From Deinococcales bacterium (lineage in GTDB: Bacteria > Deinococcota > Deinococci > Deinococcales > JAAFIG01), in NCBI GenBank assembly GCA_043778225.1, contig JAYWGM010000070.1, positions 15,831 through 79,830 of the forward strand: a DNA stretch of 64,000 nt, written 5' to 3'. Below the pieces are notes generated by a model. That model had not been told where the DNA came from. It did not search any database and worked only from the letters and a program-made list of their open reading frames with translations. The position numbers and the translations under genes were made by a program. This document shows, in pieces, positions 57,515 to 64,000 of this stretch (positions are counted from its first letter, which is position 1; every line of letters begins with the position of its first letter).

Positions 57515-60500
57515 GTGACGCGACGTACCGCACAAGCGGCGGGGTCGTCGGGCGTTTTACAACCAGTCAGCAAACCAACAGCCAAATCTGCTGCTGGTGC
57601 TGCGCGGTTGCTTGCCCGCGCCCAACTCGCCATTTTTTCCTTAAAACCACTCGAGACTGGCTTATACGCTGGGCTTCCCCAAGTGGCACGTTTAATGCTG
57701 TTTGCTCGAGATGACCAAGCGGTGCTGCTGACCACACCAGAACGGATGCGGCTTTACAAGGACTTAGCGGTGCTGGGTCGGCAATCGAGCATCAATCCTG
57801 GAATTGCTGATTGGGCTGAACTGGAGAATCATGTGGTCTTAGACATTGCCACGGCACTCGAGGATTTTCCGTCTGAACCAAATGCTTTTAGGCTCGAGTT
57901 AAGGGTTGGTACAAGCTACACTCGAGATGATTTTTTAACGCGGCTCGAGGCTTTGGGCTACGAGCGCGAAGAAAATCTGGACAAAGCCGATTTTGAAAAA
58001 ACCGATGGGTTTTTTAAGGTTTTGGGCGATACTTTAGAAATTACCATTAACCGCTCTGGGCAGGATAAAACAAGGCGAGAAGTCCGAGCCGAATTTTTTG
58101 GCGATGACCTCGAGACCTTAAAACTCAACAACGAGAAAATTAAGCATTTTAGCCTCGCGCCGCTTGGCGATTACGTGCCAGAAGTGGCGTGGGACAGTAC
58201 ACGGCTCGAGCGAGTTGCTGGGCGGGTCTATCTGGATTCGCCAGAGTTTTTTGAAGGCTATTTAACAACCAAGCAGCATCAGCGTTTATGGGCGCATTTA
58301 GCCACTCGAGCCGTGATTTCTTTTGGGGCAACACCACTGTTCCTCGAGACCAAACAATCTTTGCTTGAACCTATGGCGTTTTATCGTGCCAGACTTAAAA
58401 TGTTTGCCGAGGATGCCAAGAACTGGATAGAGGAGGGCTACCGTGTGCAAGTGCTGCTGAAACACGAGCGCACTGGGGCGTATTTGCAAACCAATGTCCT
58501 CAATGCCGAAAGTGGTGTGCCGATGGTCTGGGAATGGCGGGCTGAGCCGCAAGTTGGTAAAGTCACACTGACCCTCGGGACTGCCGAAGCTGGTTTTATT
58601 GACCGCGAAAATAAATTGGTTGTCCTGACCGAAGATGCGCTGTACGGTTTTACCGGTGGCGCGAGTTTGCGAATGCGAAAGCTGCGTGGCAATCCAGTTT
58701 CGGACACGATGGCATTAACCGTCAACGATTACCTGATTCACCCCGAACACGGCATTGGGCAGTTCCTCGGACTCGAGGCACGGCTGGTGCTGGGCGTGAT
58801 GCGCGATTACATTCATTTGCGCTATGCCAACGATGCTCGAATTTACTTGCCTGTCGAGCAACTGCCATTCCTCAAACGCCATCCCGGTACGACCGACGAC
58901 CCGCCGCGTTTAAGTACCTTAGGCACAAACGACTGGGCAAAGGCTCGAGAAAAAGCCAAGAAGAACGCCGAGGAATTGGCACAGAAACTCTTAATTCAGT
59001 ACGCGGCACGGCAAGCCACTTCGGGCATTTCGTACCCTCCAGCCCCGATGGAATGGGACACGGACTTCAACAAGAACTTCCCATTTGAATTTACCAAAGA
59101 CCAAGGCAGAGCCATTAAGGATGTCTACAAAGACCTCGAGCGTGCCATGCCGATGGATAGACTTGTTTCAGGCGATGTGGGCTTTGGTAAAACCGAAGTG
59201 GCGGTGCGTGCCGCCCACCGAGTTGTTGCCAATGGTCGCCAAGTTGCGATTCTCGTGCCAACCACGCTTCTAGCCGAACAGCACCTCGAGACAATACGGC
59301 GGCGCTTTGCCGATACGCCAGTCATCGTGGCGGGATTAAGCCGCTTTACGCCAAACAAAGAAGTTGAGGGTGTCTTCAAGCACCTGCGCGAAGGTAAAAT
59401 TGATATTGTCATCGGTACGCATCGCCTTCTTGCTGAGCAGCTTAGTTTCAAAAACCTTGGATTACTGATTATTGACGAAGAACATCGTTTTGGTGTGATG
59501 CAAAAAGAAAAACTCAAAGCCCTCAAAGCCGGCGAACTCTCCCTCTCGAGTTTTCGGGATGTTGTCCTCGAGAATGAAAAAGACTCCAAGCCCAAAGCCC
59601 GAAAAAGTGGCTCGAGAACGGCTCAAGCCGCCTCAGTCATTGCCCACGACCTCTCGAGCATTATGGGCAATGTGATTGGGGTCAAGCGCGAACGCAAAGT
59701 TGAATTGACCGAACACGCCATAGATGTCATGACCCTTTCTGCCACGCCGATTCCGCGCACCTTGTACATGAGCATGGTTGGTCTGCGTGATATGAGCCAC
59801 ATTGCCACGCCACCTGCGGGGCGCAAACCGATTCAGACCGTCCTTTCGCCATTTGACCCATTCACAGTCCGAGACGCAGTTCTGCACGAAATGGAACGCG
59901 GCGGCAAATGCTTTTATATTCATGACCGCGTGGCAAGCATTGGCAGACGCGCCCAGTACCTACAAACCCTGATTCCAGAAGCTCGGATTGCGGTGGCGCA
60001 CGGTCAAATGCCCGATGGCGAAATCGAAGAAATCATGCAGGGCTTTGAAGAAGGTGCGTTTGATGTGCTGGTTGCCACAACGATTGTTGAATCGGGCTTG
60101 GATATTCCAGAAGCAAATACAATTTTAATAGAACGCTCAGACCGCCTTGGCTTGGCGCAACTCTACCAACTGCGCGGACGTGTGGGTCGCCGTCAAACCG
60201 AGGCATTCGCCTATTTCTTTTATCCGCCGCGCCTGTCCGAAAATGCCGAGCGTCGTCTCTGGGCAATTGCGGATTTAACCGACCTTGGCAGTGGGCATTT
60301 ATTAGCCGAAAAAGACATGGAAATTCGCGGGGTTGGCAATATTCTTGGCGCAGAGCAACATGGGCATATTCAAAATGTGTCACTCGAGGTCTACACCGAA
60401 CTGCTTGGCGAAGCGATTGGAAAACTCAAGGGCGAAGAAAAAGTTATTCCACCACGACTTGCGATAGACCTAAAAGTCAATGCCCGACTCGAGCCAGAGT

Positions 60501-60886
60501 ATATTCCCGAAGAACTCGAGCGAATCGAATACTATGGGCGCTTATCCGAAAGCACCAGCCTTGGCGAAATTAGCCGAGTTGAACGCGAAATGAAATCTAA
60601 ACACGGGGTTGTGCCGCTCGAGGTGCAGAATTTTCTCGAGTTAGCCCGTTTACGTGTGGTTGGTACAGCCAAAGGCGCAATGAGCGTCGGCGAAACCATG
60701 ACCCAATTGGTGGTGCAGTTTGCGCCAAATCGTGGCAGTTTGGATTATGATGCAAGGGCAGCCAAAAACCACCCGAATAAATTACTGGTCACAAAGTACC
60801 CGCCGGGTTTTACGCTCGAGAAGAAAGGCTTAAAACCCGAGGAGTACGCAAGAGCAATTCTCGAGGCGCTGTATGCCTTTGCTTGA
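57515..60886 (+). CDS. mfd: Transcription-repair coupling factor
   Basis: HPEHGIG (CarD-like RID), [37 protein letters not shown]-terminus. Confidence 0.95.
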
Positions 60887-60899
60887 GATATAATTGCCC

Positions 60900-63230
60900 A
60901 TGCCCGATTTTGACTTAACAGAGAATTACAAAGAAATTCGATTAGACCAAATTAAAGATGAGGTTAAAGAGTTCCATCCATTATTGATGCAGCTTTTTCA
61001 AAAACTCCCTCGTGTACTGGATGTTGAATATACACATGGAACTCAAGAATTTGGAGCTGACATTATACTTCAGCGCGATGAAGAGATTCTTGGTAATTCA
61101 GAATATATTGGTATTGTTATCAAGTCGAAACCGATTAAACAAGATTTGGCTGAAATAATCAGGCAAATTGACGAGTGCTTCCAAATTCCAAGAACTTTTA
61201 AGAATGGCAAAGAAAACATCAGGATTTCTACTGTGTGGGTTGTAACGAACTCAAAAATTGAACATAATGCAAAAGTAAAAATCAATTCTCAGTTTGCAAG
61301 TAGAAAAGTTGAATTTGTGGATGGTAGTCGTATCAAATCACTCATAGACAAATATCTACCGTCTTATTGGTCAAACATCGATTATGTCATTGGTAATTTC
61401 CTCTCCATATCCTTGTCTAAAGTTTCTTCTGATGACGAAAAAGCTAGTCTACTTAGTGAGATTGACGATGAATTTTACATTGAACAAGATATTTACTTGC
61501 TGCCAGAAAATCCGAAAATTAAACGAAAGACCTTTAAATTCAAGCCTACGAATCAAAAAATTGACATTTTTAGCATTATTGAAAAAGAAGATTTTATTCT
61601 TGTAGAAGGAGGAATGGGTTTCGGCAAATCCAAACTTCTCAGAAAAGTGTGTAGCCACTATTTGAAACCCGAAATTTTTTTGGCTTCAAATATAATTCCC
61701 ATACTTATCCCATTCAAAGATTTTTTCGATAAATATGAAATGAAGTTGGAAAATCTAATTTCTGCTTTAGTGCCAAAGGATGTAATTGAAAAATTTTCAG
61801 GTGGGCAATTTTTATTCTTAATTGATGGATTTGACGAAAAAAGAAGCGAAAATCATGACCGACTCAAGCAAATCCAAGAACTGCGCCAAGACCTAGCTAA
61901 ACTAGAATTCGGGAAAATACTTTTGAGTACAAGAAGTTTAAGGGGATTAGATATTTCAACGCTTGATTTACCTAAGTCTTCCCGCTTAGAAATACAACCA
62001 CTATCTTTAAGGTCGACATTGCAGTTCATCAATCGATATTGCAAAAAATTCAACATAAGCGAGAATATTCTGGAAGACATAAAGAATTCACCTTTATTTT
62101 TTAATCTGCCTCAAAGCCCGATAGCAGCAATTTTATTGGCAAAGTTAATAACTGAAAATTCTCAAGATATTCCTTCAAACTTGACTGAACTCTATTCAAA
62201 ATATACTGAGCTGTCATTAGGGCGTTGGGACTTAAATAAAGGACTACAGTCTCAAAAAGAGTATGAAGTGATATTTGCAATCATTCAAGAAATTTCAGTT
62301 TATAGTGTAGATAACGAATTCCCCCCTATATCTTCAGAAGAAGTAAAAGGTTTTTTTGTAAACTATTTGGCAAAAAGAAACTTAGGAATTACTGCCGAAG
62401 AATTACATAACAAATTAGTAAGTAGGTCAGATATTATTTTTGAGGATCAAACTACCAATATGTTCACTTTTCGACATAAGACCTTTGCGGAATTTTTTTA
62501 TGCAAAAAGCAAGCTAGGTGCAAAAGCAATTTCAATTGACCAAAAAGCCTTTGATTTCTATTGGGGAGAGGTATATTTTTTCTACTTGGGTCTAATCAAA
62601 GATGCTCCAAATGAGATAAAAATGCTTCGAGAATTAGTTCTTGAAAATGAATTCTCGGAGTTTATTAGAATTGTCTATCTGGGAAATTACATGATGGCTG
62701 CCTACACAACTCCGTATGAAGAAGTCATTGAAACATTGAAATTTATTGCTCTGAGGGCTTCAAACTTATACCTAGCAATTTCATCAGATGGGTCGCAGAC
62801 ATTTTTTGATAATTTATTTGCCAATTTGGAAATAACTAAAGGGCAGCTATTAAGATTCTTCAAATTTTTAATTAAACATAGCTATTCTTTTAAATTTTTT
62901 GAACAGGCTATTCAAGAAGCCATTCTTCGGATTGCCGTTGATACTCATTCGTCTGATGATGAAAAATCTTATGCAGCTTTTTTTCTAGCAAGTATTTCAT
63001 TTGAAAAACAGCAGGACGCTTTAAATTTGTTCATATCTAATATTAAAAATATTCCTATGGAAATTAGGTACATACTGTTAAACGACTCAGGTAAAAAACC
63101 TTTGGATTTAAGTCAAGCAATTAAAAAACTTAATAGAAAGACCGAAAAAGCGCTTAAAAACGCAAATCTAGGCTCAACTATAGCTAAAATTTTAGATTCA
63201 CCAATTAAAAATTCTAAAATCCCAAAATAG
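60900..63230 (+). CDS. Mrr-like nuclease domain fused to NACHT/STAND NTPase (candidate defence protein)
   Basis: N-terminal HG..EFGADI...YIGIVIK; Walker A GGMGFGKS; Walker B LFLIDGFDE; FTFRHKTFAEFF; AT-rich and CTCGAG-free. Confidence 0.75.
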   Translation: MPDFDLTENYKEIRLDQIKDEVKEFHPLLMQLFQKLPRVLDVEYTHGTQEFGADIILQRDEEILGNSEYIGIVIKSKPIKQDLAEIIRQIDECFQIPRTFKNGKENIRISTVWVVTNSKIEHNAKVKINSQFASRKVEFVDGSRIKSLIDKYLPSYWSNIDYVIGNFLSISLSKVSSDDEKASLLSEIDDEFYIEQDIYLLPENPKIKRKTFKFKPTNQKIDIFSIIEKEDFILVEGGMGFGKSKLLRKVCSHYLKPEIFLASNIIPILIPFKDFFDKYEMKLENLISALVPKDVIEKFSGGQFLFLIDGFDEKRSENHDRLKQIQELRQDLAKLEFGKILLSTRSLRGLDISTLDLPKSSRLEIQPLSLRSTLQFINRYCKKFNISENILEDIKNSPLFFNLPQSPIAAILLAKLITENSQDIPSNLTELYSKYTELSLGRWDLNKGLQSQKEYEVIFAIIQEISVYSVDNEFPPISSEEVKGFFVNYLAKRNLGITAEELHNKLVSRSDIIFEDQTTNMFTFRHKTFAEFFYAKSKLGAKAISIDQKAFDFYWGEVYFFYLGLIKDAPNEIKMLRELVLENEFSEFIRIVYLGNYMMAAYTTPYEEVIETLKFIALRASNLYLAISSDGSQTFFDNLFANLEITKGQLLRFFKFLIKHSYSFKFFEQAIQEAILRIAVDTHSSDDEKSYAAFFLASISFEKQQDALNLFISNIKNIPMEIRYILLNDSGKKPLDLSQAIKKLNRKTEKALKNANLGSTIAKILDSPIKNSKIPK

Positions 63231-63271: not shown

Positions 63272-63613
63272 TCACCGTGGGCGCAACTCAAGATGAACTT
63301 CTAAGTCCAAAGCCGCCGCATAGCGCGTCAGGGTTTTTAACTCGAGGTTCGCATGGGCTTGCTCGAGTTGCGAAACTCTGGCTTTACTGACCTGTAAAAC
63401 TTTTGCCACATTATCCAGCGTTAAACCACGTTTGACTCGAGCTTCTTTGAGCATTGCACCAATTTGTTTGCCAATGGTTATTTGTTCAACTCGAGCGCGA
63501 ATTTCTTGTGGGGTGCTGACCTCGAGTAAACCTTTTGGTGGTGTTCCTTTGATTTCGCCAGTGGCAATTTCTTCGGCACTAAATTCGGCTAGTAAAGCAG
63601 CTAGTTTATTCAT
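63272..63613 (-). CDS. XRE/HTH antitoxin (HigA-like)
   Basis: LKEARVKRGLTLDNVAKVLQVSKARVSQLE. Confidence 0.8.
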   Translation of the reverse strand: MNKLAALLAEFSAEEIATGEIKGTPPKGLLEVSTPQEIRARVEQITIGKQIGAMLKEARVKRGLTLDNVAKVLQVSKARVSQLEQAHANLELKTLTRYAAALDLEVHLELRPR

Positions 63614-63999
63614 GATGACCTCTCTTTCATGACTCTAGGGTTGTGTTTGAAGGCTAAGGCAACCTCGAGAACTTCAATAAGTTTTGCCTCGCTTGGTTCG
63701 TCACCATCTTTTATTTCTGCATTGACGATGACCGCAGCCGTTTTGGTTTCTGGTGTGTAAAAAAATAGGTACACTCGAGCGCCACCTTTTTGTCCACCTC
63801 GAGAACGGGTTTTTAATGCCCAGACCAAATTGTTTTTCATTTTTTTGAGAAATCTCGAGTCTCTTCCCATTTGGTGTAAATCGGTTAGCATTTCAATCAT
63901 CGAGTCATACCGAATTAACTTAATCACTCTCGTTTGCCAAAAAACGGCAAACTGCCGTTCTCGCGTTAAATTCGGTATCGTTAATACTCCCGTTGGTCG
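63610..63999 (-). CDS. RelE/HigB-like toxin; frame open to the window end, contains a TIR element
   Basis: LVWALK...GGARVYLFF motif; ATGA overlap with the HTH gene; true start uncertain. Confidence 0.55.
   Translation of the reverse strand, partial: RPTGVLTIPNLTRERQFAVFWQTRVIKLIRYDSMIEMLTDLHQMGRDSRFLKKMKNNLVWALKTRSRGGQKGGARVYLFFYTPETKTAAVIVNAEIKDGDEPSEAKLIEVLEVALAFKHNPRVMKERSS
63907..63978. mobile_element. 72-bp MITE-like element with terminal inverted repeats
   Basis: ATACCGAATTAAC ... GTTAAATTCGGTAT; internal hairpin GTTTGCC-N7-GGCAAAC; first 27 nt match the 36369 element at 22 positions. Confidence 0.7.
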
Positions 64000-64000
64000 G

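Follow-up and report, generated by a model that had tools for sequence, protein, structure and literature searches.

The window, a 64,000-nucleotide stretch of DNA from a Deinococcales bacterium, contains an intact open reading frame (ORF) of 776 aa with an ATG start at 60900-63230 (+ strand). From the ORF, Pfam and BLASTP matches, alignment, and an AlphaFold2 (AF2) model, this gene is assigned to the bNACHT25 family (nuclease, NACHT, and NCH1 domains). On its left is mfd (57515..60886, + strand), which encodes the transcription-repair coupling factor and is the left anchor of a variable slot. The mfd stop codon at 60886 leaves a gap of 13 bp before the nuclease-NACHT ORF begins at 60900. On the right is an HTH_3 antitoxin-like gene (63272..63613, - strand), a flank common to the relative G003. 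Its partner ORF (63610..63927, - strand) has no family match and is presumably toxin-like, judging from the layout of the pair and a known motif. Homology of this ORF to its 133-aa version in G003 ends at ~63907, where a multi-copy repeat starts. The repeat (~100 bp, 63903-64000) is found in dozens of copies, often at contig ends, and takes the place of the 5' end of the toxin-like ORF relative to G003.

The protein's N-terminal portion (residues ~8-158; 60921..61373, + strand) is a PD-(D/E)XK (Mrr-like) nuclease domain according to Pfam, conservation, the AF2 model, and fold matches. The Pfam Mrr_cat match (residues 23-149) scores 21.0 bits, which is at the cut-off. On the basis of conservation, the candidate catalytic set is E21, E50, D54 (61059-61061), K75 (61122-61124), Q89 (61164-61166), and E92 (+ strand). 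The NACHT NTPase core (Pfam PF05729, residues 232-382; 61593..62045, + strand) scores above the cut-off and carries the invariant R345. It includes Walker A, GGMGFGKS (residues 237-244, with K243; 61608-61631, + strand), and Walker B, LIDGFDE (residues 307-313, with D309, D312, and E313; + strand), the latter read in the sequence. The winged-helix domain (WHD) motif is FRHKTFAEFF (residues 524-533; 62469..62498, + strand). The chain ends with the helical domain NCH1 (Pfam PF22728, residues 596-772; 62685..63215, + strand), matched over profile positions 1-172 of 173 with E=9.7e-23 and 81.2 bits against a cut-off of 27. The C-terminal ~230 aa are predicted by AF2 to be all-helical, and Pfam gave no TPR or WD40 family match in the 776-aa protein. 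The first-pass annotation had described an Mrr-like N-terminus, Walker A/B, a winged-helix motif, and a helical C-terminus without TPR or WD40 repeats, and Pfam, sequence, and AF2 agree with this. Its D...V-I-K reading of the nuclease motif is also present in the sequence (D54...V73-I74-K75). The C-terminus is not a novel sensor as it had suggested, since it is the named NCH1 domain.

Mean pLDDT in AF2 is 91 over the full chain, and the N-domain reaches 94. The N-domain model matches MspJI, AspBHI, AF1548, FokI, and the Avs4 nuclease at Z 9.9-10.9, and the remainder matches NLRP3, NLRC4, and NOD2 at Z 22-25. The model is close to the closed forms of these three proteins (rmsd 3.3-4.4) and distant from the active forms (rmsd 13-17). 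Residues 161-676 align with NLRP3 (7alv) at Z 23.4 and rmsd 3.4 over 415 residues (VIA-align), and the stretch aligned to NLRP3 NACHT-domain structures includes residues ~546-676. Because model residues 161-676 cover the NLRP3 NACHT-domain crystal structures, only ~100 helical residues remain past the NACHT-like module. The PDB sequence search gave no relative of the protein, and the search of a phage collection gave only two partial NACHT matches. NCBIfam gave just weak DS8 and EruA matches; both identities were rejected because the scores are far under the cut-off.

Composition and expression of the gene

The nuclease-NACHT gene has a GC content of 0.326, compared with 0.487 for the genome, and only 0.16% of 7618 genome windows of the same size have a GC content as low. 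The edges of the low-GC block are sharp, at ~60900 and ~63300. The GC3 value is 0.28 for this gene and 0.52 for mfd. The palindrome CTCGAG is highly overrepresented in this genome: base composition predicts 931 sites, and 24,877 are present. With a host density of 6.17/kb, 14.4 sites would be expected in the nuclease-NACHT gene, and it has none; genome windows of this size without any CTCGAG amount to 0.2%. From its own base composition, however, just 0.19 sites would be expected. The zero count thus means that the gene is unadapted to the host, not that it avoids the site. The gene is foreign-looking, with low GC and no CTCGAG, and coordinates, GC, and window statistics all bear out the first-pass description of a 2.3 kb, sharply AT-rich, CTCGAG-free insert 13 bp after mfd. 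Contigs of two runs (possibly source samples) span the end of mfd, the NACHT gene, and the downstream pair with identical letters throughout and thus give no hint that the assembly is chimeric. Four further ORFs of 865-1067 aa in this genome (C48:45361, C104:10734, C28:6079, and C35:12194) are above the Pfam NACHT cut-off.

A TATAAT box at 60889..60894 (+ strand) ends 5 nt before the ATG and is likely a leaderless -10 promoter of the host style. Across the genome (1543 long ORFs), TANNNT peaks 5-8 nt before first ATGs, with frequencies of 0.040 vs 0.004 at gap 5 and 0.122 vs 0.005 at gap 6. Such a leaderless pattern has been described for Deinococcus-Thermus (PMC12340547). A sigma-70 and terminator scan, which does not score a lone -10 box, stayed at chance level. 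It is likely, from the position of the box, that the gene is expressed from its own leaderless promoter. In G003, the cargo gene of the slot likewise has TANNNT 5 nt before its ATG. Taken with the TATAAT box here, this suggests that incoming genes may use leaderless promoters of the host style.

Family membership and the nuclease site

bNACHT25 and bNACHT32 are clade-6 proteins that combine a PD-(D/E)XK DNase with NACHT and NCH1 and are 81% identical to each other (PMC12169576; the clade-6 placement also in bioRxiv 10.1101/2022.07.19.500537). BLASTP aligns the protein encoded here with WP_001702659.1 (bNACHT25) collinearly from end to end (241/759 identical, 32%; E=3e-129), and the Pfam architecture of the two is alike. 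Identity is 41.8% in the nuclease, 33.4% in NACHT, and 23.4% in the C-terminus. Corresponding residues (this protein = bNACHT25) are D54=D48, K75=K69, Q89=Q83, E92=E86, E50=E44, E21=E15, K243=K226, H526=H506, and T528=S508. All the bNACHT25 residues with a tested role (D48, H506, and S508) are therefore kept, with Thr for Ser at the last. WP_001702659.1 was located in an E. coli record via an Enterobacter plasmid homologue. This E. kobei plasmid protein shares 81.2% identity with bNACHT25 and has WP_057688290/291 at its flanks, and for these two reasons it is probably an allele of bNACHT32 (reference accession WP_057688292).

In NACHT-module trees (64 rows in a quick IQ-TREE run; 63 rows in FastTree, with one junk row omitted), 46 rows containing the query and bNACHT25/32-like proteins are separated from 17 distant REase-NACHTs with support 100 by a long branch in unrooted trees. 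Within the 46 rows the query and bNACHT25 fall on different sub-branches, that of the query being weakly resolved. Judged from its sequence, the protein is a new, intact, full-length member of the bNACHT25/32 family. The suggestion of a possibly undescribed subtype has to be dropped, since the whole protein aligns as a full-length homologue of bNACHT25/32, whose DNase, NACHT, and NCH1 architecture has already been published. Two other assignments do not apply. Clade 14 (bNACHT01-like) is described with an SNaCT C-terminus and no discernible effector (PMC12169576), and the protein encoded here has an N-terminal nuclease and NCH1. The Avs1-24 types have a repeat sensor of at least 400 aa, the size above which Lee et al. 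clustered sensors (PMC13581612), and here ~230 aa without a repeat family match follow the WHD. PADLOC was run, as the first-pass annotation had proposed, and gave no match. bNACHT25 and the bNACHT32-like protein escape it as well, so its silence is uninformative; with PADLOC 2.0 passing over this protein and bNACHT25 alike, such genes are under-counted in defence surveys.

In the canonical Mrr motif, D...QxK, Gln or an acidic residue is located two residues before the Lys. As shown by an alignment of the 120 best of 226 matches (query included), this motif is not found in the family: position 73 (K-2) is hydrophobic in all 120 sequences (Ile in 89, Val in 29, Leu in 2), and acid or Gln is found in none. 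Among the same 120, D54, E50, and Q89 are conserved in 120/120, K75 in 119, and E21 in 117 (with 3 gaps), and the column of E92 has Glu in 110, Asp in 6, and Gln in 4. By conservation, the nuclease ranks second among the regions of the protein (22/147 columns at ≥90%). In the AF2 model the strand 67-75 ends at K75, and Q89 is on the helix 84-95. The spacing is D54-X20-K75-X13-Q89, placing Q89 on the next helix, 14 residues past K75.

The departure from the canonical motif could indicate that the nuclease is dead and that the protein serves as a scaffold or is in decay. This reading is favored by the valine at K-2 (V73), neither acid nor Gln, and by an Mrr_cat score only at the cut-off. bNACHT25, however, has a hydrophobic residue there too (D...I-C-K, against D...V-I-K here), and its degradation of DNA upon infection depends on D48 (PMC12169576). 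The non-canonical site is thus a trait of the family rather than a sign of decay. With the ORF intact, the candidate catalytic residues conserved almost throughout, and migration of the acid to the second helix documented in active enzymes (PMC3424549, PMC4652773), a dead nuclease is very improbable, and the first-pass idea of an inactive site does not hold.

The other half of that idea, a rearranged site, is plausible given the invariant Q89, whose spacing and helix position would fit. In Cfr10I the acid was described as having moved to the second core helix (PMC3424549), and the CCGG-family motif is PD-X21-53-K-X12-13-E (PMC4652773). Conservation and spacing point to Q89, or to E92 one turn later, as the probable substitute for the missing residue; that Q89 itself stands in for the missing strand-3 acid is somewhat favored. 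The residues K69, Q83, E86, and E44 of bNACHT25 are absent from the main text of PMC12169576, and the papers listed in the literature search include no structural one on bNACHT25. Q89/E92 is a concrete prediction for a nuclease site that the papers cited here map only at D48. A distant REase-NACHT sister group (~22-30% identity, ~800 aa, many of them in Bacteroidota) shares the non-canonical nuclease motif, and the pattern E-x-G-x-D, hydrophobic-x-K, QI is kept in most of its rows.

Proposed action and trigger

As a homologue of bNACHT25, the protein quite probably stays inactive until the cell is infected, when it degrades DNA and so arrests the cell. bNACHT25 and bNACHT32 protect against DNA phages as well as RNA phages, degrade DNA, and need D48 and dnaJ (PMC12169576). 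The MS2 coat protein is not bound by bNACHT25, which purifies together with DnaJ and depends on the DnaJ-DnaK cycle (PMC12169576); exchange of its auto-inhibitory His (H506L) makes it hyperactive (PMC12169576; bioRxiv 10.1101/2022.07.19.500537). By analogy with bNACHT25 and with NLR biology, the protein would rest as an ADP-bound closed monomer held by H526. Infection would be sensed indirectly, possibly through the chaperone cycle of host DnaJ/DnaK as in bNACHT25/32. Nucleotide exchange and oligomerization, a step known from NLR/STAND proteins in general, would then gather the nuclease domains. D54 and K75 would cleave DNA broadly, Q89 (or E92) likely standing in for the strand-3 acid, and growth of the infected cell would stop. 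The gene would act alone, and it is the one that at present fills an exchangeable slot behind mfd.

The trigger is the part of this proposal that may differ from bNACHT25, since the protein is on another sub-branch and only 23% identical in its C-terminus. The host genome has two DnaJ_C genes, one of them with a zinc finger. Given the C-terminal divergence, dependence on DnaJ has about even odds. A weaker but serious possibility keeps the family and the DNase output and changes the trigger: the diverged NCH1 region would bind a phage protein directly or guard a host factor other than DnaJ. The low C-terminal identity, the low conservation of NCH1 (4/175 columns at ≥90%), and the separate sub-branch all fit this, and many STAND families bind phage proteins directly (PMC13581612). 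On the other hand, the ~100 residues past the NACHT-like span are few for a pattern receptor (at least 400 aa in Lee et al.), and both tested family members need dnaJ, bNACHT25 showing no binding of MS2 coat protein. The protein offers a way to test whether the chaperone-guarding of bNACHT25 extends to 23% C-terminal identity and to a distant host.

Homologues have a patchy distribution. A scan of species genomes gave at least 79 loci from many phyla. Of these, 44 were kept (near full-length, ≥30%) and 35 dropped (13 partial or short-flanked, 22 distant). NCH1 is found in 2/251 genomes of a phylum sample, and bNACHT25-like genes in 18/5426 E. coli genomes, where they lie in a Rac-like prophage in the two regions that were inspected. 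In 4/18 of these E. coli loci (H34, H35, H36, and H39) the gene is annotated as two pieces, which suggests repeated loss by frameshift. Among the matches listed, the GC content of the homologue is below that of its flanks in 44/44 kept loci. Within the family of the host, 3/19 genomes have a match: this genome, G010 (39% identity, elsewhere in the genome), and G005 (a 3' remnant, 90% identity). The remnant (G005:C126:1-1989), from the same genus, adjoins an unrelated 300-aa ORF, and the mfd slot of G005 holds a different gene.

Neighbors were taken from 43 loci as the 166 nearest ORFs (two on each side), 150 of which were scanned. Among the matches listed, these 150 ORFs include no recurring partner gene. 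A restriction, toxin-antitoxin (TA), or nuclease gene is near the homologue in 6/43 loci and an integrase or transposase in 7/43, either class in 12/43, leaving one IstB/DnaA-like match uncounted (again among the matches listed). The defence-island association that had been proposed as a check is therefore modest, and as these are raw counts without a background, enrichment is not established. The homologue neighborhoods consist mostly of housekeeping genes, the mfd slot is otherwise rich in TA genes, and a chaperone guard could respond to stress other than phage. These observations would suit a non-phage role, such as anti-plasmid activity, suicide in response to stress, or that of a selfish, addiction-like cassette spreading via the mfd slot. 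An antidote partner is absent in the 43 neighborhoods, however, and both tested relatives are anti-phage (PMC12169576), and such a role is considered unlikely. With its bNACHT25 homology and low GC, the gene stands as a foreign, single-gene, NLR-like anti-phage candidate of the nuclease-NACHT type, as first proposed.

The slot behind mfd and comparison with known systems

The sequence after mfd is readable in 15/18 family relatives, and within the stretch read none of the 15 has the NACHT gene there. Other accessory genes follow mfd in 14/15; G002 goes straight to a T2SSF/PilC gene. The 14 occupied slots begin with 11 different first genes (G004 and G005 share one, as do G015 and G018), several of them with GC of 0.27-0.38. 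G003 has the same mfd and HTH flanks as this genome (86% DNA identity in the right flank) with a 164-aa gene between the two stop codons. TA or defence-type matches are found in 9/13 slot loci scanned: AAA_15/AAA_21 ATPases, PADLOC PDC-M21A/B and PDC-M36A, Panacea, PemK, PIN, Phd, RelE/HTH, an IrrE-like peptidase with HTH, and AbiTii (below cut-off). For several occupants there is no family match (288, 164, 210, and 262 aa), and another unannotated one of 479 aa is PDC-M36A-like. No integrase match was found among 39 slot ORFs scanned. In 12 genomes of other families, read by eye, the region after mfd is mostly host-like. A DUF559 nuclease-like gene, or pieces of it, is found repeatedly just after the variable cargo in genus g5. 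The position after mfd is very probably a variable slot rich in TA and defence genes. It is a better lead than the nuclease-NACHT gene itself and yields a short list of unannotated candidate defence genes.

CTCGAG may also mark the joints of such cassettes. In G009 and G016 a second copy of the last ~24 mfd codons lies downstream of the first cargo, and CTCGAG stands at the start of each copy. In this genome (G000), 18/70 local direct repeats have CTCGAG at the boundary in both copies, compared with 11/412 in random and 19/334 in motif-protected simulations (p=1e-9 and 3e-6). By independent clusters the count is 10/45, with a mean identity of 0.30 outside the boundary. Soft-flank controls (4/31 and 2/6) are underpowered, and a replicate on 1.2 Mb of G013 was not significant (2/18 vs 8/269 simulated, p=0.12). 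In comparison with G003, the NACHT gene is bordered by the stop codons of mfd and HTH and not by CTCGAG. Published work associates HIP1 with recombination, both site-specific and illegitimate (PMC4390886). CTCGAG-anchored joining of cassettes is a tentative idea. Equally speculative is the combined picture, in which the 3' end of mfd would be a core defence hotspot throughout the family, with integrase-free swapping, CTCGAG-joined cassettes, and an NLR nuclease site of the form D-x20-K-x13-Q. If it were true, the CTCGAG palindrome would gain a function and the unannotated slot occupants would be candidates for new defence genes.

Among known systems, the core defence hotspots of P. aeruginosa (cDHS; PMC10250203) and the minimal mobile elements of Neisseria (PMC1797815) likewise place alternative accessory genes beside a core gene. 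The mfd slot differs in being small (usually 1-6 genes), in having no integrase match, and in its anchor, mfd. No mfd hotspot was found among the matches listed in the literature search. The nuclease site resembles those of Cfr10I, NgoMIV, and BsaWI in its hydrophobic K-2 and in having, on the next helix and 14 positions past the Lys, a polar residue that is invariant. In those enzymes this residue is Glu, whereas here it is Gln, with E92 one turn later. They are also sequence-specific restriction enzymes, unlike the broad cleavage proposed here.

Avs4 and Avs3 share the fusion of an N-terminal PD-(D/E)XK nuclease to a STAND NTPase, and the Avs4 nuclease (8dgf) matches the fold of the nuclease domain at Z 9.9 and rmsd 3.1 over 137 residues. 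Their chains are 1500-2000 aa long, however, and terminase or portal is bound directly by their large sensors; the protein encoded here has no such sensor and no PADLOC Avs match. The closest likeness is with bNACHT25/32, which shares the nuclease-NACHT-NCH1 order, a similar length (752 aa in bNACHT25, 776 aa here), 32% end-to-end identity, the same non-canonical D...(I/V)-x-K site, the WHD His with Ser/Thr, and a stand-alone gene. The differences are the sub-branch, the C-terminus of 23% identity, an uncultured non-enteric host, and a slot behind mfd in place of a Rac-like prophage or plasmid.
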